Shown one piece after another: positions 3,648 through 58,212 of a stretch of 64,000 bases of DNA (its first letter is position 1; the number at the start of each line of letters is the position of its first letter). The stretch spans positions 4,142 through 68,141 of the IMG/VR virus record IMGVR_UViG_3300049482_000116. One strand, 5' to 3'. The DNA comes from a virus. The translations under genes were made by a program, and so were the position numbers. The notes under the pieces were generated by a model. That model was given only the letters and a program-made list of their open reading frames with translations. It ran no database searches and had not been told where the DNA came from.

Positions 3648-4278
3648 TATCTATTTTGAACTTGATAGTTTAAAATACATTCTTGAAAACAGGGGCATCG
3701 AACCAGACGCGGTTACGATGATCCTACAAAAAGCTAGCGCAGACATAGATCGTGCCATGGCTAGTCACACTGAAGCAGCTATGCAGCTTGCCATCGAAGA
3801 TGGAGTACAGAAGCGATCAGCTGAATTTATCAATGAACTTAAGCTTAATCAAATATCGATGCAGCTTACAACGGACTCTGGAAATATGGACTTCTCTGAA
3901 CCCCCATTCCCTATGCTTCCGCGACTGCTACAGGGCGCTAAGCCCATAAAAGATGGTTCTGGGGTCTACAAAGTCATTCCTGTAGGTGAATCTTCTAGGA
4001 ATAGACCTAGGGTGTCTAGCAATATATATGATGCCTGGAAACAGGTCAATGCTGAGAGAATGGAAGCCTCAAGAGCTCAGCGCGAGCGAGTAACCCCTAA
4101 AAACTCTAAGGCTAAGTTTAGAACGGCTACAAGTAAACAGAATGCTAATACACAGTGGGTTCAACCAGCTAAAGATAAAGACTTCACAGATACTGTCCAG
4201 AGTATAAATAAAGAACTTAGTAGTTCTTTAGAAGATATTGTTCGCAACATTATAAGAGATTATGAAGAAAACTTTTAA
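3640..4278 (+). CDS. hypothetical protein, possibly neck/tail completion
   Basis: 212-aa ORF coupled to the previous gene; function from position only. Confidence 0.5.
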   Translation: MANIYFELDSLKYILENRGIEPDAVTMILQKASADIDRAMASHTEAAMQLAIEDGVQKRSAEFINELKLNQISMQLTTDSGNMDFSEPPFPMLPRLLQGAKPIKDGSGVYKVIPVGESSRNRPRVSSNIYDAWKQVNAERMEASRAQRERVTPKNSKAKFRTATSKQNANTQWVQPAKDKDFTDTVQSINKELSSSLEDIVRNIIRDYEENF

Positions 4279-26600: not shown

Positions 26601-27733
26601 AGTCTACAGACGAGATCAACACAGTTGTAAACTTTAATAATAAAGGTTTCTTAGCTACTTGGACAGCAAACAGCAACTTAGTTACTGGCGTAGTAGGAAC
26701 ATTTAAGCACGTTTCGGTGGGCGACTGGGTTAAAAAAGATGAAGATCCAGAGTCTTCTTATCGTCAAGTAACAAGTATGAATGCGGCTCCAGCTGCAGCT
26801 ACACAGATCTCGCTTGGTGCTAACTATGTTGGTAATAGCTCTATAGCGGCAGGTGTTGCCTATAACCAGCTAACCGGCTACGATCAAGGTGTCTATCTCG
26901 ATAATGTGGACGACATTGCTTTTTATGAAGGTGATTCTGTAGTAAACGGCGACACATTGTTTATTCAAAACATTGTCAATGCTAATTGGTTTAGTCCACA
27001 GAATATCGGTAGCTTCCAGATTGTTGAATCTGGTACAAATGGCACTACATTTAAGCCTTTCTTACGTATAACTAATTCGGCCGGTATTGCTGAAAATACT
27101 AGATTAATCTCTATAGACACAGCTGGCTTCTACTTAATCGAAGGATTAAACAGTAAGTTTTATACTTATCGCCAAGTAGAACACGCTGTTATAGATGATC
27201 TAAACGATGAACGTCGTTCGCTTTTCTTAACACCTTCTAATAGATCTTATAAATTTTCTGAAGCTAATGCGACGTCTATCACTCACTCTGCTAAGCTTGG
27301 GTACAACACTAATGTCACTATCGGTGTTGATGGATATCTTTATTACACAGGTCTCTTAAGGAGAGTTCAGCGTATCGTTGATGGATTTGAACCTGATGCA
27401 GAAACGTTTCCTGGACGCAGAGCGGTTGGTGGCTTTATCGAAACTCTACCTCCACTTATCAAGAACATTATTCTTACTATTAATGTGACTACAGATGAAG
27501 GCGTGAACTTAGGTAATATCTCTAATAATATCAAGTCGACGATCATTAACTACATCCAACAAGATCTTGGCGTAGGTCAGGATGTAATCTTGTCGGAGAT
27601 AATTGCAGCAGTAATGCAGATCAAAGGTGTAGCAGCAGTAACTTTTACCAACCCTGTACCTAGTACGGAACGTATAACTGTAGCTAGTAACGAAAAAGCA
27701 ACAATAAGTACAGAAAACATTGGAATTGCTTAA
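20636..27733 (+). CDS. giant baseplate J-like (wedge) protein, 2365 aa
   Basis: N-terminal J motifs (GSVLLSLLEA, GSAGN, GTDVETDTQLRNR, LARGT) and C-terminal J motif (LGVGQDVILSEIIAAVMQIKGV). Confidence 0.85.
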   Translation: MTIELKSFNQILGDMIRKIISETPLNDVNAGSVLLSLLEACASNDFENNTAILNVLELLNIDAVRNNDLDARAGDYGLKRLTAVKASGQVRIANTNITKRSTGLYVIKPAPISGQTTLYVNNTTGWAPSGTLYIGRGTDSFEGPIPYTSILVFPTYSQINLGSALQKDHLISDSVIDSQGEPDRLIASGTVVKIPANNQNPEIKYVTLRDSVIAAGEDNVTNVDVIAIVPGSAGNAQINTITQFDTLPFIGAAVSNTSSFSNGTDVETDTQLRNRIKSYAITLARGTAPSIISAVIGVSDPDDSKQVASAVITEPVKVGDPSILYIDDGSGFQPSFTGQSVDNMLANANGSEEFLQLANFPVTRPQVVNVVEGPFSISDSMFLRVAVDGAEETITLLSSQFQNISAATSAEIIVAINDQSTLFKARFTNNSANILLYPVAHDAEIIQVIPIRETDTVALYVNSILKFPTNEFSYIALYQNSTRLREKEKTATIETVAFASWNISGGGNLVIAIDGTPAQDRTFALSDFPGASSFTGLALQDWVDAFNAKYAGITAEATPNQTMKILSNKSGSSSSLVVSGGTYLNKMLPGQDLSAQGQTSQFQLNRQTGNIRILTDIVTGDSVTAGVEDAKGFAVSSETTSGTYNVSNDAFGRPAEIVIAVDSTECSPRSVPLIVGATISISDQGSSVMRIMSSTLDAFSSLQPGDFIYLIRRTSGWVSNANAGLYKIVSKGPHLTANADSYVEVLNDTIVAETVSIADSTDIKAFKTDAYPQIWRGSYAANPPAETISDLVASINTSILGVRATIFRSNSIKITSTTEDGGSISLPIVVGNAASLFTQTDSAQFGNPSHIANRVSDKSLFGMFRRSLATATNVWLDRHTYTDIKGPLSSNAVPDSSPYSATYSETVAASGVLTPTNVGYPDILSFTRGNNRNLLRSVKAKIVTDSVGTQQGIPRTEFDHIIGDEVQLMDSLKFAADDSIVFILDKDVATKTVDIKISRTGQVNSGSNMLSFPPTTTEFSANDVDNEPGIDFSNANVWSTTINNTKFDDYAVLMRARNWYSTGGVSGLGGKLIVRSYQYGANGDKMRFNIRYPQTPNQLPTTILANTPSHSLFSYFFGSQADRITAVAVNDTISVSGPYPDTSTNFPNGVVSTGNYFDYTFSGGSFAGVQVGDVLSIQDGAGISTFNRGAFRVAAKSGQTLRVFNTNASTTAAGTPEISVFTTIADVIGTPSTVTITTTSAVTLDGTYFTMYDNAGSVKVWFDLDNNGTSEPVSPAHDRTIKVATLVTGDTATVVATKIAAYLSNDSAFLNVFSTPTQVIFDMAQNGPVASPIDGTPATTFVFAVSPGTADVSLDGKYIIIHDDIGSVAVWFDVGNDGTSEPFHGADRSIRCGLINYGDSASVVAAAIATIVNAQIKFNASALGNQLTITTTFNANTPSANVGTSTFPSVVITNGSLSGAELITNPTQIHIFPIIGKTAQEIADKVNEKSILRLAVVGVGTLTIDKSTEEDDYVYGGNSSALGYGHNPSIAADRDHIKLYDGINWVKTFTNINPNFTLKTTLTLNGVAPSVYQMNTAPNEDLSTGEFFKLVPTTVKNVQHHLTQKALSQLPIISTVDISNAGKNVQIKSKELGSTGALEIVGGRANKAQAYIIGESEVASDVSGNYLELKIPAFPDTFNRGDIVRIENTSGVKRFSRLNATDSVSVTVPAANTVEYNYDAKDTNFTAGTTFTITDVSASYSRPAGTVWRWTHGGGGASLADVVAGDLVVAYGSLSGWAQGNKAGVTGDANVAGLPIINVNDSSNWFDVVNPHGRSMVSTAMGSGTVQINPTPIIKWNLDHAAPAHVLSIVRSSNIATLSTTTAHGLSSGDSIQLNDSDALTDGVYGPVTVLSPIQLTFASVGANFSEADVSASITNSAKARTRYRIEQLGFNGLTRLVRQDGDSPRFTDCGVAVDDYMVIAGNSFLANNNGRFRVLAVDSESVLFLNDQSTDEINTVVNFNNKGFLATWTANSNLVTGVVGTFKHVSVGDWVKKDEDPESSYRQVTSMNAAPAAATQISLGANYVGNSSIAAGVAYNQLTGYDQGVYLDNVDDIAFYEGDSVVNGDTLFIQNIVNANWFSPQNIGSFQIVESGTNGTTFKPFLRITNSAGIAENTRLISIDTAGFYLIEGLNSKFYTYRQVEHAVIDDLNDERRSLFLTPSNRSYKFSEANATSITHSAKLGYNTNVTIGVDGYLYYTGLLRRVQRIVDGFEPDAETFPGRRAVGGFIETLPPLIKNIILTINVTTDEGVNLGNISNNIKSTIINYIQQDLGVGQDVILSEIIAAVMQIKGVAAVTFTNPVPSTERITVASNEKATISTENIGIA

Positions 27734-39079: not shown

Positions 39080-41821
39080 ATGGCAAATGAGATAAAATTT
39101 GGTAGTAAGGTAGTGTTTTTAGGTGGAACACCGATAACATTACCTTCGCAAGCTTCTGATCCTGGTAGTGCAGTCAACGGAGACATGTACTATAACTCTA
39201 CTTCAGACACCATAAGAGTATATCAAAGCGGTTCTTGGCAAAGTCTTGCAACAGGCGGAGCAGCTGCTAACACTACTTTGAGCAATCTTGGAACTACCGC
39301 TATTAACGCTGCTTTACTGCCAGCGTCTACAAACACAATAAACCTAGGTAATGGTAACCTTAAGTTTAACCAGATGTTTATCAATCAACTTCGCCGCGAT
39401 TCTGGTGAAGGTGTTACAGGACGAGCGGTTTTAGACGTTCAAAACTTCATTGCATATAATGGAACAGAAACGGCGATCTTTAAGTGGGATTCTTCTACTG
39501 TAGAGCTATCTACAATGACAGCTACTACTGTCCCCTATCTAGATGCTAACAAGCGCCTACAATCTAGTACAGTAACTCCAACTGAACTTGGATATCTTTC
39601 TGGTGTTACTTCTGCACTTCAGACACAATTAGGTAACAAGGCTGCCGATAACGTGGTTATCAAAAAAGATGGTTCTGTTGCGTATCTCGCGAACCAATCG
39701 ATGGGCGGTTTTAAACTAACAAGTCTCGCAGCAGGTAGTGCCAACGGTGATTCAGTTAGATATGAACAAGCTATTTTAGCTTCTGGCGTCAATGCATTTG
39801 CTGCCAACCAATCGATGGGTGGTTTTAAACTAACTAACCTTGCAGACGGTACTTTAGCACAGGATGCAGTTTCTAAGACGCAGATGGAAACTGCTGATGG
39901 TCTCAAGGTTTCTAAGTCTGGCGATACAATGTCAGGCAACCTGGCAATGGGCGGAAACCTTGTCACTGGACTGGGTGCTCCTGTTGGTGCTAACGATGCT
40001 GTTCGCAAAGCATATGCTGATGCTATTTCCGCTGGTTCAGTTTGGCTTAACCCGATCAATGATCCTGACCTTATCGATGACTCGCTAAGCACACCCCCTG
40101 GTTCACCAGTTGTAGGAGATACTTATATCGTAGCAGACACTGCTACAGGAGCTTGGGCAGGATTAGAAGGCTATGCTGTGTTCTGGAGCGGATCTGCCTG
40201 GGTTGATATCTTAGGTCGCGCTGTCATCGCCGGCGATCGTTTCGGCGTCAGCATGGAAACTCCGACAGCTGCAGCTGGCGGATTAGCTACTAAGGAAAAT
40301 AATATTGCTCAAATTGTGTCCCCAACTCCTGGAGCGATCACATACACATTTACTGCACCCATACTTGGACAAGCAGTGTTCGTATTTAATACTGCTTCCA
40401 CTCACTCTGGACACCAGTATAACTACAACGGAACTTCTTGGGTTGAATTCGGTGGAGCAAGCGCAATCACCCCTGGCGTTGGTCTATCATTCTCCGGTAA
40501 CGTATTAAATGTTAACCTTGGAGCAGGTATTGCTCAACTCCCTTCTGATGAAGTTGGTATTGATGTCCATACTTCCGGTGGACTATTTACTACAGTCGAC
40601 AACAGCACATCTAGTACTGTCACTGCAGCTCAACTAGCAGTTAAACTAGATGGTTCTACATTAAGTAAATCATCCTCAGGACTTAAAGTAGCTGCCCTTG
40701 GAATCACCAACTCAGAGATCAGTGCGTCTGCAGCTATTGTATATACTAAGTTAAATATCTCTAACAGCGTTGTAAATGCTGATATTGCTTCTGGAGCAAA
40801 TATTGCATTAAATAAGTTAGCTACTGTAACTGCAAGTCGCGCGCTTGTTTCAGATGGATCTGGATTCATATCAGCAGCTTCAGTTACAGCGACCGAGCTC
40901 TCGTATCTATCTGGTGCAACAAGTTCAATCCAGACTCAACTTGGAAACAAGGCTTCTACTACCTTAGACAACTTAGGTACTACAGCAATCAACACTAATC
41001 TGATTCCAAGTGCTACCAACTCGCATGATCTAGGTACTACGTCTGTTCGTTGGAAGGACTTATATTTAGCTGGAGCAATAACATCAGCTGGTGGAGCAAG
41101 TTTTGGCGCTGGAATCACTGCTACCGGAACAATCAGCTCTGGAGCCTATAACTTAACTGGTGATGCTCTTGAAGTTAGCGGTGGAGCAGTAAGAGTCAGC
41201 TCTTTTACGACTCCAATTACCGGTGTTGCTGCTGCCTCGTTATTCCCAGTAAGTCCAGCTGCTGTACCAGTGTCTATCTTTACACGAGACAACAGTACAA
41301 ATGACGCGGTTGCTTCTGGTGACGCACTTATCGAAACAGGAGATAAGACTGACGGTACTGGTAACTCTGGTTCTATCAAGCTTCAAACCGGGTCTTCAGT
41401 AGGCGGAACAAGGGGATCAATCGAACTTGATGCACGCGCTATCGCTCTTCGCGGCACGGTACAAAGATCAGATACTGCTGGTGGATCTAGTTTAATCGAA
41501 GAACAATATATCCATGCAACTACCCTTGCGGCCTCTCAGACTAATGCTATTGTAACAGCATTAAATTTTGCTCATGCTTCTTATGAAGGTGTAGAGATTA
41601 CTTACAAGATCAAGGAAGCTACCACTAACGCAGTCCGTACTGGTAAACTAAGTATCGCCACCAATGGGACCGACGTATCTATTGTTGACTCTTTTAATGA
41701 GACAGCTGATGTTGGGGTCACTTGGAGCGCAGTCGTCAATGGCGCTAATATCAACGTAAGGTACACCACTACTGCTAATACAAAAACTGCACGTATGGAT
41801 ATCAAGCGCTTTAAGGCTTAA
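39080..41821 (+). CDS. tail fibre protein with internal repeats
   Basis: KSGDTMSGNL, SMGGFKLT repeats, TELxYLSG repeats, DUF2793-like PPGSPVVGDTYIVA...GAWAG. Confidence 0.75.
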   Translation: MANEIKFGSKVVFLGGTPITLPSQASDPGSAVNGDMYYNSTSDTIRVYQSGSWQSLATGGAAANTTLSNLGTTAINAALLPASTNTINLGNGNLKFNQMFINQLRRDSGEGVTGRAVLDVQNFIAYNGTETAIFKWDSSTVELSTMTATTVPYLDANKRLQSSTVTPTELGYLSGVTSALQTQLGNKAADNVVIKKDGSVAYLANQSMGGFKLTSLAAGSANGDSVRYEQAILASGVNAFAANQSMGGFKLTNLADGTLAQDAVSKTQMETADGLKVSKSGDTMSGNLAMGGNLVTGLGAPVGANDAVRKAYADAISAGSVWLNPINDPDLIDDSLSTPPGSPVVGDTYIVADTATGAWAGLEGYAVFWSGSAWVDILGRAVIAGDRFGVSMETPTAAAGGLATKENNIAQIVSPTPGAITYTFTAPILGQAVFVFNTASTHSGHQYNYNGTSWVEFGGASAITPGVGLSFSGNVLNVNLGAGIAQLPSDEVGIDVHTSGGLFTTVDNSTSSTVTAAQLAVKLDGSTLSKSSSGLKVAALGITNSEISASAAIVYTKLNISNSVVNADIASGANIALNKLATVTASRALVSDGSGFISAASVTATELSYLSGATSSIQTQLGNKASTTLDNLGTTAINTNLIPSATNSHDLGTTSVRWKDLYLAGAITSAGGASFGAGITATGTISSGAYNLTGDALEVSGGAVRVSSFTTPITGVAAASLFPVSPAAVPVSIFTRDNSTNDAVASGDALIETGDKTDGTGNSGSIKLQTGSSVGGTRGSIELDARAIALRGTVQRSDTAGGSSLIEEQYIHATTLAASQTNAIVTALNFAHASYEGVEITYKIKEATTNAVRTGKLSIATNGTDVSIVDSFNETADVGVTWSAVVNGANINVRYTTTANTKTARMDIKRFKA
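39692..39834 (+). repeat. intragenic direct repeat, 29 bp x2
   Basis: aaccaatcgatggg(c/t)ggttttaaactaac at 39692 and 39806. Confidence 0.8.
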
Positions 41822-46783: not shown

Positions 46784-49090
46784 ATGAGTTTACAACTTAC
46801 CCAGCATCTGATCGGTGACTCCAACGTTTCGTACGTTGCTGCTCCACTTATTAATGTGCCTAATACAACTATAGTGAATCGTGCTAAGATCCGTGATCTT
46901 TCTCAAGACATGGCACCGTGCATGGGAATTCAGCGGATCTCTGCACAGCAGATTTTAGAGATTCAAAGCGAATTTGGACCAAACGGCGAACGCGTTTTTA
47001 GCGTCTTAAACGATGATCTTGGTCTGATTCGATTTGTTGGCGGTTGGAATCGACTTGTAGATCAGTATGGACCATATTCTCAAGCCTCTACCACTAACGA
47101 TTATGTTGAGATAACATTCTACGGAACTGGACTAAATGCTAATATGTTCCTGATCTCAGCAAACGATGCAAGAATCACAGTCGATGGCGGAACTGAGGGT
47201 GCAAACATACTTAATGCGACTTATTCAACTGTATTAGGACAAAGACAGTATTCAGCTAATCAAGTTCAGTCTATAGTTTCTGGACTATCAGTAGGAATTC
47301 ATACAGTTAAGATTAGAAGCGCAAACGCCGTTGGATTAGCAATTTACGGTTTTGAAATCTTAAATGAGTCTTCGACAGTTCGCATTAATTCAGGTAGGTT
47401 GATCAAAGATCAACGCCAAGTATCCTTAGAAACTGCTCAATCTTTAGCATATAAACCTTCAGTGCTTACTGGTACAAAAGGTGGTCGCGTTGTTACTTAT
47501 AACCAGGGTGGAGTTCTTGCACAGGCTGTTCAGGCCGTAGGAATATCTTCTTTATTCTTAACGTCGGCCGATCACTCTGCTGAAGAGCTCGCTAGGGTTC
47601 ACAACTGGAGAGAGTTTGGAATTGGACGCGCAGATGATTTTAGCACAATCGCAGTTGCTAACGCAGGACAAAGGGCATTTACGCTTGACGATGGTGTTAC
47701 TTCTCTTGCTGGAGCTAACCTTTATTCTTCTACTCAATATGGAGTAAACTGCTTAGACTACTTCGATGCGGCCACTGATTGGTTCGTATATCTTACGTTT
47801 GTTGGCACAGGCTTAGATATTGCTTTAGCTAACTTTACGGCAGCTACTTCTCGTGTAACAAACGTTACTGTAGACGGTGTCTCTGTGGGTTCTATTCCGT
47901 TCGTAGCTAACAGCGGTATCAAAAACTATAAAATAGCATCTGGTCTTCCTTATGGAACACACGTTGTAAGACTTTCTAGTCCAGGTCTTGGTGGCAATCA
48001 GACTCCACATAAATTTATCTCTTTTTCTGTTTACCAACCTAAGAAACCAGCAGTTCCAGTGGGCGCAATAGAGCTTGCGGATTATAACGTGATGGCAGAT
48101 TTTGCTCCAGCATCGACTTCTACCTCATCTTCTCAAATAGATCTAGGCTTGATTGGAACTGGAACACTTAGAAAGATGCTTTGGAGAGAAGCGGTGTACG
48201 TAGGTGCATGGGGAATAAATGTAGGTGTTTCGGCAGCCGCGAATATAGGCGGATTTGAAGTGGGCGGAACCTTATTAGCCAGCAATTTCATGGAGTACAC
48301 GTTCTTTGGAACTGGGTTTGAAATTCGCTTCGAAGCCACATCAGGCTCTGTTGGCCACACTATTACTCTTAATGGTAGCAACATGACCCTAGCTAATTTT
48401 CCTAATCTTGTTACTTCACAGTATGGAATGACCACTACGGTGCCGTTTAATACTTCTACAGGCGTATTTAATACCCAAGGCACTACAGCCGGGAATTCAG
48501 CTGGTTTTAGTGCAAAAGGTCTTCCACTTGGAAAATATACAGTACGATTTACTAATATTTCTGGTGGCGTTGTTTGGTTTGAGACCCTTGATATCATCAC
48601 TCCGATTCATTCTTCAAAATCTAATCTCCAAGCAGATCTTCAAAACTCTCTTCCAGTTGGATCTTGCTCTCTTTCAGATTCTAGACAGCTGATACCAACT
48701 AACTTAAACTCAGCTAAAGCTTGCGCGCAGGCCTCAGGTACTGAGAGTAATCCGACAACAACTTCAAACAACTATGTCCCAATGCCTCAGATGTCTTTAG
48801 CCTTAAAGACAAATGGAGGCAAAGTGCTAGTTAATTTTGTTCATTGGGGTGCTGTTAATACTATTGGTGCTCTTATATATTTACAGTGCTATATCGATGG
48901 TGTTCCTGCAGGACCTGAAGTAGCCTTTCACACTGCATATAACGCAAACTATACACAAACACAGTCTTTGAGTTTTATAGCCTTTTTATCTGCCGGAGCA
49001 CATAAAATAGATGTATACTGGAAAACTACTGGTGGTGTAACTGCATCGTCATCTAATACAGGGCGAAATTTATTAGCTATAGAGCTGTAG
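46784..49090 (+). CDS. tail fibre/receptor-binding protein (paralog B)
   Basis: Aligns with the C-terminal part of paralog A (VPNTTI.NRA.I.DL, WREFG..RADDFS). Confidence 0.7.
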   Translation: MSLQLTQHLIGDSNVSYVAAPLINVPNTTIVNRAKIRDLSQDMAPCMGIQRISAQQILEIQSEFGPNGERVFSVLNDDLGLIRFVGGWNRLVDQYGPYSQASTTNDYVEITFYGTGLNANMFLISANDARITVDGGTEGANILNATYSTVLGQRQYSANQVQSIVSGLSVGIHTVKIRSANAVGLAIYGFEILNESSTVRINSGRLIKDQRQVSLETAQSLAYKPSVLTGTKGGRVVTYNQGGVLAQAVQAVGISSLFLTSADHSAEELARVHNWREFGIGRADDFSTIAVANAGQRAFTLDDGVTSLAGANLYSSTQYGVNCLDYFDAATDWFVYLTFVGTGLDIALANFTAATSRVTNVTVDGVSVGSIPFVANSGIKNYKIASGLPYGTHVVRLSSPGLGGNQTPHKFISFSVYQPKKPAVPVGAIELADYNVMADFAPASTSTSSSQIDLGLIGTGTLRKMLWREAVYVGAWGINVGVSAAANIGGFEVGGTLLASNFMEYTFFGTGFEIRFEATSGSVGHTITLNGSNMTLANFPNLVTSQYGMTTTVPFNTSTGVFNTQGTTAGNSAGFSAKGLPLGKYTVRFTNISGGVVWFETLDIITPIHSSKSNLQADLQNSLPVGSCSLSDSRQLIPTNLNSAKACAQASGTESNPTTTSNNYVPMPQMSLALKTNGGKVLVNFVHWGAVNTIGALIYLQCYIDGVPAGPEVAFHTAYNANYTQTQSLSFIAFLSAGAHKIDVYWKTTGGVTASSSNTGRNLLAIEL

Positions 49091-49120: not shown

Positions 49121-51769
49121 ATGGGCGCAACTATTAATATCAATGCAAAGAGTAACGTAAAGCAAAACACAGATGCAGATCTGATATCAAGTCAGCTTCA
49201 GCAACCTGTTATCGCTCGCTATGAAGCCACATCTACTGCATCTCAAACGGTTATAAACCTGCCTTTCCTAGTAAATCAATCAAATACTGATGCATTTGAT
49301 CTATTCATTGATGGTGCACTAACTAGACTTGGCTCATTAAACGACTTTATCTTTACGTCTATTGATGGAACTAATTCATCTTCGCAAATCACTCTTAATA
49401 CACCTATCGCCGCTAATTTAAACATCATAGCAATCAAGCGTGGGCTTAAAAAAGAAACTGAGTTTGCAACTGATTCTCGTTTTATTGATAATTATGATCT
49501 GATGACTGCTGGTTTCCAGGGTTTTGTAGACGAATCTACTAAAATCTCTGTTCCTAATACGACTATAGTAAATAGAGCTCAGATTTCAGATCTTGCTAAC
49601 GATGCACGCGTCAGTATGGGTATCGATCGCATACAGATTCAAGGCATATATGAACTTCAAAACGAGTTTGGTGCAACCGGTGAGAAGGTTTACGGTACAC
49701 TAAGCGATGACAGAGGACTAATTCGGTTTGTAGGTAGGTGGAGTGCGCCAGAACTAGTTACCTATGGCAGACCTATTGAAACTCCAGCAAACAGTACATT
49801 CTCTTATGTAGAAATAACTTTTTATGGAACCGGACTCAACATGCTGAGCGTATACAACTCATTGCTAGATGCACGTGCATCAGTGGATGGTGGTGCAGAA
49901 GGTGGAAATCTATTTGTAAGTGCCTACTCTAATGCTATTGGAACTCGTGGATATAACCAAAACATGGTGATACCTGTTGTATCAGGCTTAACCCTAGGAA
50001 TACATACGGTAAAAATTCGTCAAGCATCAGCATCTGTTGCATTAGATATTGCTGGCTTTGATGTAATCAGTGGAACTACAATTAAGGTTAATCCAGGTAC
50101 AGGTTATGCAGAAGGTCAGAAGATTGTTTCTGCGGGAACGACCTTATCGCATACTACTCCTGTAACAGGAATTCGTGGTGGTAGAGTTTTAACTTATGTC
50201 AACTTAAACGGTACAGTGGGACAAGCATTTCAAGCTGTTGATGGAGCACAAGCTAATTACTTACTAGCAGATCATACCAATGAAGAAGTAATTAGAACAT
50301 ATCATCCAAGAGAGTTTGGTGCTGGTCGCTCTGATGATTGGTCTACTGCTACTGGAGCTGCAGCAGCGCGTAAGTTTACACTTGAAGATGGAACAACAAG
50401 TCTTCACTCTAATGCTGGTTTGATCAACGATCGTTTTGCTCTAGGTTTCGAAGTTCTTAGTGCATCTGCTGCTTCAGATCAAATCAGTCTTACATTCGTT
50501 GGTACCGGTCTCGATGTCATGGCATGCGGTGGTGGCGGTGCTACAACGATCACAGTTGAAGTTGATGGTATTTCGATCGGGACATTAGCAGCAGTGGATA
50601 TTCCTAGTCTTGAACTTAAGAAGATTAAGATTGTCTCTGGTCTTGCTTATGGAACCCATACTGTTAAGATTCAGTTTGCAGTAAGTGCATTAGGTATCAC
50701 AAAGTTTATAACTTACGGTCCTAAAAAACCTGCAATTCCAGCAGGGACAATGGAACTTTCTAATCACTATGTTATGGCTACTTATGCTGTAAACACTACA
50801 GCTAATATTTATGCACTTTCTGCCGGCGTTCTTCGAAAGAGTGGACTTCGTGAATTTAATTATGTCAACGGAGGTGCTAATAATTGGTCAGTAGCAGATG
50901 ACAACAATAATCCGCAGGGACTTGTCATTGGATCAAATCAGCTTCAAACTAACTGTTACGTTGAAACTTCTTTCTTCGGAACAGGGTGCGAGATCTACAT
51001 ATTGTTACAGAACGCTATCGCGTTTGGCACTACAACAGTATCTGTTAATGGTTTGAGCAACTTTACCGGCATAGGTACACTGTATACCGGGGCTGTTACT
51101 GGAATGACATTTACCGCTGCTACTGGATCTTTATCTGGTACGCCTGTAGGAAACGGATACGGTAAAATCGTAATTAACGGTTTATCCCTAGGTCTTCATC
51201 GTGTTCGTTTTACTACTACTACGGGAGCAAACCCTTCGGAGAAATACTTTAGCGGTATTGATGTTATCACACCAGTGCATTCTCCTCAATCTGATTCAAA
51301 AACAGAAAACCAAAATACACTTCCAGTTGGATCACAAGGCATCTCTGATTCTAGACTTTTAAGTCTAGTTAAAAGTGAGAGTCCTAAGAAGTTCAGAGGT
51401 GTAGCAACAGATTTAGGGTCAAACTCTTCGACATCGTCAGCATCACTGATCCCAATGCTCGATATGTCTATAACTGTCCCAAGTCCTGGAACGTGGTTCG
51501 AACTTGGGTTTCAGGGTAACTTTCAACCTATCGGTGCGTTTAACGATCAGGCGATCACACAGTTCTATATTAATGGTATAGCAGTTGGAAAGCAAGGTTA
51601 TACTAGACCAGCAAGCTCTACAGCAGCATTTGTTATGTGTACTCAAACTCACTTAGTATACCTATCAAAAGGTACCCACAAGATAGATATGTATTGGGGA
51701 GTAGCTGGAACCACCGTTCTAGTTTCTGGCGGCAATATTGGTAGACAGTTGACTGTAAAGGAACTTTAA
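49121..51769 (+). CDS. tail fibre/receptor-binding protein (paralog C)
   Basis: Same modules as A and B; TATAAT at 49105. Confidence 0.7.
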   Translation: MGATININAKSNVKQNTDADLISSQLQQPVIARYEATSTASQTVINLPFLVNQSNTDAFDLFIDGALTRLGSLNDFIFTSIDGTNSSSQITLNTPIAANLNIIAIKRGLKKETEFATDSRFIDNYDLMTAGFQGFVDESTKISVPNTTIVNRAQISDLANDARVSMGIDRIQIQGIYELQNEFGATGEKVYGTLSDDRGLIRFVGRWSAPELVTYGRPIETPANSTFSYVEITFYGTGLNMLSVYNSLLDARASVDGGAEGGNLFVSAYSNAIGTRGYNQNMVIPVVSGLTLGIHTVKIRQASASVALDIAGFDVISGTTIKVNPGTGYAEGQKIVSAGTTLSHTTPVTGIRGGRVLTYVNLNGTVGQAFQAVDGAQANYLLADHTNEEVIRTYHPREFGAGRSDDWSTATGAAAARKFTLEDGTTSLHSNAGLINDRFALGFEVLSASAASDQISLTFVGTGLDVMACGGGGATTITVEVDGISIGTLAAVDIPSLELKKIKIVSGLAYGTHTVKIQFAVSALGITKFITYGPKKPAIPAGTMELSNHYVMATYAVNTTANIYALSAGVLRKSGLREFNYVNGGANNWSVADDNNNPQGLVIGSNQLQTNCYVETSFFGTGCEIYILLQNAIAFGTTTVSVNGLSNFTGIGTLYTGAVTGMTFTAATGSLSGTPVGNGYGKIVINGLSLGLHRVRFTTTTGANPSEKYFSGIDVITPVHSPQSDSKTENQNTLPVGSQGISDSRLLSLVKSESPKKFRGVATDLGSNSSTSSASLIPMLDMSITVPSPGTWFELGFQGNFQPIGAFNDQAITQFYINGIAVGKQGYTRPASSTAAFVMCTQTHLVYLSKGTHKIDMYWGVAGTTVLVSGGNIGRQLTVKEL
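51341..51406 (+). repeat. 66-bp direct repeat, copy 2
   Basis: Matches 45904-45969 at 65 of 66 positions. Confidence 0.9.
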
Positions 51770-56872: not shown

Positions 56873-57409
56873 ATGGGCAGAAAAATCAGCAAGAACGGAT
56901 TAGAGCTAATTAAGGGTTTTGAAGGTTTATATTTAACAGCCTATCTAGACATAGTAGGTGTACCAACCATAGGTTTTGGTTGTACTGAAGGTGTCACTAA
57001 AGAAGATGTGGCTAATAAACGCACTATCACTGAGCAAGAAGCTATTGATATGATGATGAAAGAGTTAGATCGCTTCGAGAAGGGCGTTACTAAATACGTT
57101 ACCATCCCGATCAACCAGAATCAGTTCGATGCGCTTGTTTCATTCAGTTATAACGTAGGCCTTGGAGCTCTTCAGAAATCAACCCTATTGAAGATCCTGA
57201 ATGCAGGGGATATATCTGGAGCAGCAGAGCAGTTTCTTCGTTGGAATAAAGCCGGTGGAGTTGAAGTTAAGGGGCTTACTCGTAGACGTCAAGCAGAACG
57301 CTCACTATTTTTAAAATCTGAGACTCCTCCTGCCGGACTTCTTCCAGATGGCCCCAGCGAAGAAGAAATAAATAAAAAATTAGCTGATATTGAGAAAGAT
57401 TTGAAGTAG
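56873..57409 (+). CDS. lysozyme/endolysin (GH24)
   Basis: FEG...AYLD..GVPTIGFG catalytic E-D-T; NQNQFDALVSFSYNVG; GLTRRRQAE. Confidence 0.92.
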   Translation: MGRKISKNGLELIKGFEGLYLTAYLDIVGVPTIGFGCTEGVTKEDVANKRTITEQEAIDMMMKELDRFEKGVTKYVTIPINQNQFDALVSFSYNVGLGALQKSTLLKILNAGDISGAAEQFLRWNKAGGVEVKGLTRRRQAERSLFLKSETPPAGLLPDGPSEEEINKKLADIEKDLK

Positions 57410-57552
57410 AATATTAACTATGGGACTCTAGCTTAGCAAAAGAGTCCTACAACTTAAAAAGAAAGGGTAAAAATATGCATTAGGTTCATAAGCCTCCTTA
57501 AATCTTCTAGTTTGCCTCTGGATTTCAATAACCAAACTAACTAGGAGAACAT
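57407..57552 (+). promoter_or_regulatory. leader with promoter, two amber-interrupted minigenes and an SD-sequestering hairpin
   Basis: TAGAAT 57407-57412; ATG GGA CTC TAG...TAA (57420-57470); ATG CAT TAG GTT CAT AAG CCT CCT TAA (57475-57501); TCTTCTAGTT (57503-57512) complementary to AACTAGGAGA (57539-57548). Confidence 0.55.
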
Positions 57553-57996
57553 ATGAAAAATCAAATAAATCTATTAAAACAAGAGCTCAAGTCTCTTGCT
57601 AAAGAAATAACTACCAACCGAAAACTATATAAACAAGCTCAAAGAGAGGGTAAATCTCTTTGGAATATCCGCGTTCCTTCTTATGAATTCCGATATAAAC
57701 ATATCGTTTATTGTATGCTTAGAGGTCGAACCATTGAGCAGATTGAACGAAGTCATAAACCGGGCAAAGAGCCTAACATGCCATATATCGAAATGATGAT
57801 CAAGAAGGTGCAAGATGAAGCTTTACGTAGTAGTGAGATCGGATCTGTCGAAATCCCAACAAGCAGTTCAAGCGGGTCACGCTCTTGCGGAGCTCCTGCT
57901 GAAGCAACAACCGCGAAAGTGGAAGAATGGGACACTGGTTTACTTAAAGGTAAGGGATTTAGAATCTTTGGAGCTTTTAAAAGTCTCTTTAGATAA
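57553..57996 (+). CDS. hypothetical basic protein (YEFRYKHIVYCMLRGR motif)
   Basis: AGGAG SD; its C-terminal ~60 codons overlap the next gene. Confidence 0.75.
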   Translation: MKNQINLLKQELKSLAKEITTNRKLYKQAQREGKSLWNIRVPSYEFRYKHIVYCMLRGRTIEQIERSHKPGKEPNMPYIEMMIKKVQDEALRSSEIGSVEIPTSSSSGSRSCGAPAEATTAKVEEWDTGLLKGKGFRIFGAFKSLFR

Positions 57997-58123
57997 GTAT
58001 CAACAATATCCAGTACCATTTAAGGAGCCTGATATCGGAGATGAGATGACTGCCTTTGCACTTTTTGAGTGCACAGATCATGCAACTGCTCAATCTCTTT
58101 TGGATAACCTTCCTTTGATGTAA
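57815..58123 (+). CDS. peptidyl-tRNA hydrolase, PTH2-like fold
   Basis: KLYVVVRSDL..SQQAVQAGHA...LVYLKV...EPD.G...TA...L..LPLM matches the PTH2 family pattern; AAGG SD. Confidence 0.75.
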   Translation: MKLYVVVRSDLSKSQQAVQAGHALAELLLKQQPRKWKNGTLVYLKVRDLESLELLKVSLDKYQQYPVPFKEPDIGDEMTAFALFECTDHATAQSLLDNLPLM

Positions 58124-58138
58124 AAGTATAATATTGAT

Positions 58139-58212
58139 GCACCCGTAGCTCAGTGGCTGAGCAGGCGTCTCTAAAACGCTGGACGTGGGTTCGATCCCCA
58201 CCGGGTGCGCCA
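58139..58212 (+). tRNA. tRNA with CUA anticodon (amber suppressor)
   Basis: Acceptor GCACCCG/CGGGTGC, G73, encoded CCA; D arm GCTC/GAGC; anticodon stem GGCGT/ACGCT with loop CT-CTA-AA; T arm GTGGG-TTCGATC-CCCAC. Confidence 0.92.

Follow-up and report, generated by a model that had tools for sequence, protein, structure and literature searches.

Positions 57463–58212 of a 64,000-nucleotide stretch of viral DNA (the window; positions 4,142 to 68,141 of IMG/VR virus record IMGVR_UViG_3300049482_000116) carry a compact unit that, judging from the comparison of related loci, is probably a conserved phage operon (we put the likelihood at about 0.7) in which the translation of two proteins, a basic protein that is called X here and a PTH2-like (peptidyl-tRNA hydrolase 2-like) protein, is gated by readthrough of an amber (UAG) codon. 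The unit consists of a leader open reading frame (ORF), a hairpin containing the Shine–Dalgarno (SD) sequence of X, the X gene, the overlapping PTH2-like gene and a gene for a tRNA with the anticodon CUA, in this order and all on the plus strand. A sequence-only reading of the window had suggested that this region senses amber suppression and had proposed a search of homologous loci for amber minigenes that co-occur with a CUA tRNA. The outcome of such a comparison is positive and supports the interpretation: an amber leader signature is found in 52 of 78 loci, CUA is the anticodon of the first downstream tRNA in 66 of 81, and 46 of 47 predicted folds have the SD of X base-paired.

The unit would work as follows. 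Without suppression, a ribosome that translates the leader would stop at the UAG, which is the third codon, and the hairpin would keep the SD of X paired. If the UAG is decoded by the tRNA(CUA) encoded downstream, or if release factor 1 (RF1) is limiting, the ribosome would move five codons further, to the sequence Lys-Pro-Pro-UAA. Two prolines before a stop codon are a poor termination context, in which termination is slow, and a ribosome covers roughly 12–15 nt beyond its A site. With the UAG (57481) in the A site, the ribosome would reach position ~57493, short of the 5′ arm of the hairpin (57503–57512), and with the UAA (57499) in the A site, it would reach ~57511. A ribosome lingering at the Pro-Pro-stop would therefore cover the 5′ arm and free the SD of X, and X and the PTH2-like protein would be made. 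We infer the polarity of this switch (on by readthrough), the stalling at Pro-Pro-stop and the function of the two proteins.

The amber leader upstream of X

The leader ORF (ATGCATTAGGTTCATAAGCCTCCTTAA, 57475–57501) has an SD of its own (AAGGG, 57463–57467), which is located 7 nt before its ATG. It is the second of two short minigenes described earlier in this region and, when read on through its early stop, encodes Met-His-amber-Val-His-Lys-Pro-Pro-stop, with the amber codon at 57481–57483, the Pro-Pro codons at 57493–57498 and the terminal TAA at 57499–57501. The leader of the closest relative (L001) is similar, Met-Ser-amber-Val-Tyr-Asn-Lys-Pro-Pro-stop, and its ATG overlaps the stop codon of a lysozyme gene.

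Related loci were collected from viral contigs with the PTH2-like protein (17 loci) and with an alignment of X (42 loci) as queries, and 67 metagenome loci were added, which after deduplication gave 101 unique PTH2-like loci. The leader survey covers the 150–160 nt on the 5′ side of X and includes the 78 loci whose sequence extends that far. Minigenes of the form ATG-(0–4 codons)-TAG occur there 59 times, in 49 loci, compared with 31 occurrences of the TAA version and 20 of the TGA version, yet the TAA trinucleotide is commoner than TAG in these regions. The strict pattern ATG...TAG...CCNCCN is found in 50 of the 78 loci, against two each for its TAA and TGA versions. The full signature, TAG-(2–12 sense codons)-CCN-CCN-(0–1 codon)-stop, is present in 52 loci, with no instance of the TAA version and one of the TGA version. 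The background frequency of this TAG...Pro-Pro-stop signature in four phage contigs is 0.004–0.007 per 160 nt; the 68-kb contig from which the window derives contains TAG...CCNCCN-stop six times on both strands, i.e. ~0.007 per 160 nt.

The reading frame of these upstream regions is also marked. Pairs of TAG and CCNCC that share a frame number 140, and the two remaining registers have 25 and 34. Both of the other stop codons are depleted in the CCNCC frame (TAA: 3 against 42 and 39; TGA: 3 against 28 and 25), and a stop triplet comes immediately after the Pro-Pro codons in 54 cases, with no other offset exceeding 12. On this comparison, the pattern is the imprint of translation in a frame where TAG is the only stop codon tolerated. 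The TAG is followed by a purine in 50 of 52 loci, an SD-like tetramer lies on the 5′ side of the ATG in 42 of 48 related leaders, and the terminal stop follows the amber codon at a spacing of 15–33 nt (mode 18). The leader peptides themselves diverge widely in sequence; some contain two serial amber codons, and some are the readthrough tail of the upstream gene. Thus, as far as can be judged from sequence, this element has the makings of the leader in a leader-peptide attenuator, namely a short ORF with its own SD and a frame free of TAA and TGA.

These counts bear on a different account of the region, in which an ordinary cluster of phage tRNA and auxiliary genes has acquired minigenes and a hairpin by chance in an AT-rich spacer. 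PTH2 genes within phage tRNA arrays are indeed already known (main texts of PMC7824862 and PMC5966550), and some features of the window on its own, given below, would agree with such a cluster. The chance account is nevertheless extremely unlikely in view of the ratio of the signature to its TAA and TGA versions, the frame bias, the covariation of the hairpin arms and the match between sensing codon and anticodon (the last two are described below). The upstream survey of the relatives' loci overturns this view of the minigenes.

Two side observations concern the leader. A 5-bp hairpin at 57482–57495 can be formed between the amber region (AGGTT) and the Lys-Pro codons (AGCCT), and similar pairings appear in the folds of several relatives; this hairpin might modulate UAG decoding. 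The contig of one relative (G001, the contig of locus L004) has the TAG...Pro-Pro-stop signature at 27719, 27845, 27980 and 28106, ~130 nt apart on one strand, which may be a tandem repeat or a set of further readthrough leaders.

The suppressor tRNA and the hairpin at the SD of X

The tRNA gene (58139–58212) begins 15 nt after the stop codon of the PTH2-like gene and encodes its CCA end. It matches Rfam RF00005 with 63.5 bits, and ARAGORN places the anticodon cta at position 33, so the intact CUA tRNA of the sequence-only reading is borne out. The ordinary tRNAs that are nearest to 87 such suppressors are a mixture (Arg 15, Trp 14, Lys 10 and others). That the tRNA decodes UAG has indirect support from in-frame TAG and TAA codons in adjacent genes, which match the anticodon. 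A further tRNA(CUA), unannotated in the record, is found by ARAGORN at 1995–2070 of the Xanthomonas phage Xoo-sp13 locus (L151), with no PTH2-like gene or X upstream.

The association of the tRNA with the two protein genes is conserved. In 16 of the 17 viral loci found with the PTH2-like query, a tRNA(CUA) follows on the same strand, and almost all of the 17 have an upstream ORF of ~100 residues that is homologous to X and whose end meets or overlaps the start of the PTH2-like gene. The 42 loci found with X include 39 with a PTH2-like gene, 36 with a tRNA(CUA) and 34 with both. Within the 101-locus set, X lies directly upstream of the PTH2-like gene in 80 of the 89 loci that have room for it. 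Where at least 700 nt of downstream sequence is available (81 loci), the first tRNA on the same strand is CUA in 66, UUA in one, another tRNA in two and absent in 12, and the median gap between the PTH2-like gene and the tRNA is 33 nt. In one locus (L033), a CUA tRNA is found 3.8 kb downstream, outside the region compared. Among cultured phages, mycobacteriophage IkeLoa has a tRNA(cta) after its gene 151, which is annotated as peptidyl tRNA hydrolase. An SD followed by ATGTTTTAGGTA is present upstream of IkeLoa gene 150, and an in-frame ATG-TAG pair directly precedes the annotated GTG start of gene 151 (2580–2635 and 2965–2980 of locus L154); this layout could be another arrangement of amber-dependent control. 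Three other loci have phage transfer-messenger RNA (tmRNA) genes 1–3 kb upstream of X and the PTH2-like gene (L010, 1222–1597; L032, 1105–1436; L033, 1615–2010), which fits a theme of ribosome rescue.

Three loci have a suppressor with the anticodon UUA instead. In the first (L101), a tRNA(UUA) lies 16 nt after the PTH2-like gene, and the leader has TAA where its relatives L002–L004 have TAG. In the second, the Prevotella megaphage Lak-B4, a tRNA(UUA) is located just upstream of the leader, which reads TAA and then GTT...GGACCT-stop. In the third (L089), a tRNA(UUA) accompanies an in-frame TAA within the PTH2-like gene, at a Thr-X-Trp position where three other loci (L008, L084 and L103) have TAG. 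Judging from these loci, the sensing codon follows the anticodon of the tRNA.

This match also helps to decide what the leader would respond to. Readthrough reflects competition between RF1 and the tRNA, and the leader is blind to which of the two has changed. It could thus sense the activity of host RF1, depleted or inactivated in infection, rather than the phage tRNA, and the window contains no release-factor gene of its own (no matches to PF00472). However, TAA is read by both RF1 and RF2, and the sensing codon is TAA where the adjacent tRNA is UUA, which means that the codon follows the tRNA and not RF1. Furthermore, the tRNA gene is almost always part of the X/PTH2-like unit. Sensing of RF1 by the leader is therefore unlikely.

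The SD of X (AGGAG, 57543–57547) sits in the 3′ arm (57539–57548) of a predicted hairpin (57503–57548), whose 5′ arm spans 57503–57512. The loop motif TTCAATAACCA is common to the window and L001; a scan of viral contigs for TTCAATAACCA..CTAACTA returned four loci, among which only the L001 contig has the module, the other three being chance matches. Taken alone, the window hairpin is unremarkable (z = −1.3, with 21 of 200 shuffled sequences folding as well), as the chance account would have it, whereas the homologous hairpin of L001 has z = −5.3 and none of 200 shuffles folds as well. Across relatives, the SD core has an upstream pairing partner in the minimum-free-energy folds of 46 of 47 loci, so the SD-masking hairpin that had been proposed for the window alone is also predicted in its relatives. 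The partner begins between −12 and +15 nt from the terminal stop of the leader in 39 of the 46 (median +5), and in 31 of the 46 more than 15 nt separate the amber codon from the 5′ arm downstream of it. The mean pairing energy of the two arms is −13.0 kcal/mol for cognate and −8.8 kcal/mol for non-cognate combinations (Mann–Whitney p = 5.6e-9), and the cognate partner outdoes at least 95% of foreign partners in 18 of 52 loci; by this measure the arms covary between loci. Lak-B4 has no SD at this site, and an equivalent layout masks the start-codon region of its X-like ORF. The second component of an attenuator, an SD-sequestering hairpin with a 5′ arm that can be reached from the hold site of the leader, is thus predicted as well.

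The direction of the switch is deduced from geometry alone, and the opposite is conceivable: readthrough and the stall at Pro-Pro-stop would repress X and the PTH2-like protein, through an alternative fold or mRNA cleavage, and termination at UAG would permit their expression. The small hairpin 57482–57486/57491–57495, which joins the amber to the Pro-Pro codons, is a candidate for such a fold. But the SD is already paired in the free RNA in 46 of 47 loci, which makes the resting state off, and the partner arm adjoins the terminal stop (39 of 46) and not the amber codon. Moreover, the in-frame stops in some PTH2-like genes (see below) make their synthesis dependent on suppression, which is the same polarity as activation by readthrough. 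Repression by readthrough is accordingly a very unlikely arrangement.

The X and PTH2-like proteins

Protein X (57553–57996; homologous part ~57553–57828) has a pI (isoelectric point) of 9.8, in agreement with the basic ORF noticed earlier, and its first 92 residues constitute the conserved part. Relatives share the motif [FY]RHxHIAYCxxRG...QIE, and the predicted structure is all helical (average predicted local distance difference test, pLDDT, of 88.9). X has no match in Pfam, PHROG, PDB sequences or PDB folds, nor in a tblastn search of annotated phages. A search of viral contigs with the single protein likewise returned nothing, as opposed to the 42 loci obtained with the alignment, and an Atlas search gave a single match, a viral hypothetical cluster at 0.76. 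By these comparisons X is a new protein family, which comprises 1521 cluster representatives at E ≤ 0.001. In one genome each of 185,579 prokaryote species, the X alignment finds three loci, all of them in metagenome-assembled genomes, and the module looks phage-restricted.

The PTH2-like gene (57815–58123) has its own SD (AGAAGG) and overlaps the end of X. Its product matches PF01981 marginally, with 23.1 bits at a gathering cut-off of 23, and 9 of 13 aligned relatives match this family at E ≤ 0.01 (best 5.5e-10). The protein also matches phrog_1866 (E = 7e-10), and the profile of the family matches PDB entry 2zv3 (E = 8e-6). Foldseek aligns the predicted structure (pLDDT 93.6) to the archaeal and human Pth2 structures 2zv3, 3erj, 1wn2, 1q7s and 1xty with template modelling (TM) scores of 0.78–0.81 and a probability of 1.0. 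The model thus has the Pth2 α/β fold, and the PTH2-like assignment made earlier holds. In Pth2 enzymes, the lysine of a 'GK' motif and the acidic residue of a 'DAG' motif have catalytic roles. The residues that are invariant or nearly so in the phage proteins are Gln19, His22-Ala23 and Glu71-Pro72-(Asp73). Both the predicted fold and these conserved Gln, His and acidic positions would suit an enzyme that hydrolyses tRNA esters, although the lysine of the 'GK' motif is not conserved.

X and the PTH2-like protein are likely to act together, since they occur as natural single-protein fusions in four cases (P0030, P0051, P0076 and P0078), with X at the N terminus and the PTH2-like domain at the C terminus. 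A complex prediction for the two proteins gave a score of 0.01, which counts neither for nor against binding. In the window, the tail of X overlaps the PTH2-like gene by 182 nt in another frame. The X frame stays open for ~60 codons inside the PTH2-like gene both here (57829–57996) and in L001 (4015–4194), and likewise in the family representatives P0045, P0048, P0053, P0094 and P0117 (155–188 residues); most relatives overlap by only 4–77 nt.

Our best guess is that X and the PTH2-like protein form one unit acting on acylated tRNA, which would either restrain the suppressor, in a negative feedback, or clear peptidyl-tRNA that would come from slow UAG decoding or from readthrough. A more elaborate and rather doubtful possibility is a self-contained controller of nonsense suppression, in which the leader would gauge the suppressor against RF1 and the two proteins would set its level by acting specifically on the acylated suppressor tRNA.

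A single in-frame stop codon interrupts 12 of the 101 PTH2-like genes (11 TAG, one TAA and no TGA); these codons are distributed over seven variable alignment columns, and none of the X genes contains any. Reading TAG as sense brings no gain in coding density to the contigs of three relatives (L004, L008 and L033), and because these contigs use the standard code, the in-frame stops of the PTH2-like genes are not part of a general recoding.

Genetic code, genomic setting and related systems

The viral contig is 68,141 bp long, and the window is its 3′ 64 kb. Its gene content, assigned by family searches (tail sheath, baseplate, helicase, lysozyme, dUTPase, methyltransferase and a GroEL-like protein), makes the source phage look like a myovirus. 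The 68-kb contig uses the standard code: its coding density is 94.2% with translation table 11 and 94.4% with TAG as sense, and TAG terminates 10 of its 55 long ORFs. This agrees with the earlier view that the circuit is not a whole-genome code change. When the same code test is applied to contigs of the window and its relatives, the coding density changes from 0.921 to 0.924, from 0.825 to 0.838 and from 0.81 to 0.83, and TAG terminates 18 of 137, 23 of 110 and 28 of 176 ORFs. Readthrough of seven TAG-terminated ORFs of the window would add merely 0–32 residues, with no obvious functional extension.

The standard code is relevant to a reading in which nothing is sensed: once the tRNA is present TAG would simply be a sense codon, and the leader would be a constitutive translational coupler for X. 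PTH2-like relatives do occur in Lak megaphages, which are described as TAG-recoded (preprint 10.1101/2021.08.26.457843, main text), and some PTH2-like genes carry the in-frame TAG mentioned above. On the other hand, the window's contig and those of the three relatives are standard-code, and X never contains a TAG, whereas nearly every leader has one, set at a fixed spacing (mode 18 nt) from the leader's final stop. Constitutive coupling would still depend on the suppressor and differs from gating by readthrough in purpose and not in mechanism; we regard it as improbable.

Several points weigh against the proposed gating of X and the PTH2-like protein by amber readthrough. The strict signature is missing from 26 of the 78 loci, some of which have Ser-Pro-stop or Pro-Pro without an adjacent stop and others nothing recognisable, and the surveyed loci are related sequences, so that the counts are not independent events. 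The hairpin of the window is, as noted, unexceptional; 15 of 46 loci have a 5′ arm at most 15 nt from the amber codon, where a ribosome stopped at the UAG might already disturb it; and only 20 of 52 minimum-free-energy folds pair the SD of X with the Pro-Pro codons as such. The codon–anticodon match comes from only three UUA loci, and a tRNA(CUA) also occurs without the X/PTH2-like module, in phages Xoo-sp13 and Phosso. In the profile alignment to 2zv3, the position of the 'GK' lysine is occupied by non-conserved residues (Q/Y/I/L/S), which makes hydrolase activity of the PTH2-like protein uncertain. Finally, the contig has an estimated completeness of 40%.

Upstream of the operon lies a phage lysozyme gene (56873–57409, plus strand; PF00959, E = 5.7e-47) that ends in TAG. 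It is a neighbour outside the conserved module; the gene order in L001 is the same, and the lysozyme stop there is TGA. The sequence TAGAAT (57407–57412), which overlaps the lysozyme stop codon, had been taken for a −10 motif. Together with CTGATA it would match a promoter at 9 of 12 positions, but one promoter-like site was found against a mean of 2.5 in shuffles, which is no better than chance, and the proposal is not supported. The first of the two amber minigenes (ATGGGACTCTAG, ATG-GGA-CTC-TAG; 57420–57431, plus strand) has no SD upstream and no counterpart in L001, and is probably incidental; of the two minigenes proposed, the conserved Met-His-amber leader is supported and this one is not. 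Both the promoter-like site and this minigene are as expected from a chance spacer. The occurrence of two ATG-(0–4 codons)-TAG minigenes in the 143-nt spacer exceeds chance, since 62 of 5000 shuffles reach that number. The first minigene is enclosed by a 9-bp hairpin (57421–57449, −12.7 kcal/mol), which directly follows the lysozyme TAG and has no T-run behind it.

A few other observations were made along the contigs. Two ORFs of the window, 46784–49090 (768 residues) and 49121–51769 (882 residues), are in one frame, and the first ends in TAG; its readthrough meets a TAA after one codon, so that no fusion of the two would result. ARAGORN reports an 85-nt tRNA-Ile(gat) at 40172–40256, within a 913-residue ORF annotated as a virion structural protein, which is probably a false positive. 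A terminase family search of the relatives' contigs gave no match. Contigs of one independent run that cover 57300–57999 show six differences, all within 57615–57925 and none in the spacer, which are too few to interpret.

The unit has likenesses to several known regulatory systems. In the attenuation of ermC, cat and cmlA, a leader ORF with an SD precedes a hairpin in which the SD of the regulated gene is buried, the held ribosome melts the 5′ arm, and the signal is a drug-bound ribosome. The phage unit shares the leader with its own SD and the hairpin on the SD of the regulated gene. Unlike in those systems, the signal would be an in-frame stop decoded by the unit's own suppressor tRNA, and the hold point would be a Pro-Pro-stop that is reached only after readthrough. 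In prfB, which encodes RF2, a +1 frameshift at an in-gene UGA uses an early in-frame stop to gauge termination and to set the expression of a translation factor. The phage unit would likewise use an early in-frame stop as a gauge of termination efficiency, but in a separate leader, by readthrough of UAG (or UAA) and unmasking of an SD, and its products are not release factors. The minigenes of lambda bar are short ORFs that cause drop-off of peptidyl-tRNA. An unsuppressed leader resembles them, with its two codons and an SD in front of a Pth-like gene, but bar minigenes have no readthrough extension, no Pro-Pro-stop and no SD hairpin.

Among recoded phages, the TGA-recoded Jade phages have a 'code change module' of suppressor tRNA, synthetase and release factor adjoining lysis genes, for which timing of expression by suppression was proposed (10.1101/2021.08.26.457843). 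As in the account given there, a suppressor tRNA is clustered with translation genes and adjoins lysis genes in the phage unit, which differs in its standard-code contig and its dedicated sensing leader; the words 'hydrolase' and 'Pth' do not occur in the main text of that preprint. PTH2 genes of jumbo phages and of tRNA arrays in cluster C mycobacteriophages were proposed to serve general ribosome rescue or tRNA repair (PMC7824862, PMC5966550). These accounts, in whose main texts the word 'suppressor' does not occur, describe a PTH2-fold gene among phage tRNAs, as here, but in the main texts without X, the leader or a tie to a suppressor tRNA. No description of the leader, of X or of the triad was found in the full-text literature, in a search that left supplements and most subscription journals outside. 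What appears to be new, as judged from sequence comparison, is leader-peptide translational control with nonsense suppression as its signal.

The presence of suppressor tRNAs in many standard-code phages is still to be explained; phage XacN1, for example, has CUA tRNAs without identified targets according to its description (PMC5852040). The operon proposed here would offer a concrete partial answer, in which the phage keeps watch on its own suppression and a dedicated pair of proteins is coupled to the readout. It would then be a natural riboregulator that reports stop-codon readthrough and, possibly, a compact biosensor of amber suppression for genetic-code expansion; a related module in cultivable cluster C mycobacteriophages, which grow on a laboratory host, puts bench tests within reach. 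If the unit were in addition a controller of suppression, a standard-code phage could run a calibrated, partial readthrough of UAG, and the unit could be a regulatory scaffold from which complete recoding of TAG or TAA, of the kind seen in Lak-type phages, might evolve. Amber gating, if true, would bear on the route by which phages pass from standard to recoded codes, and on the role of the X family.

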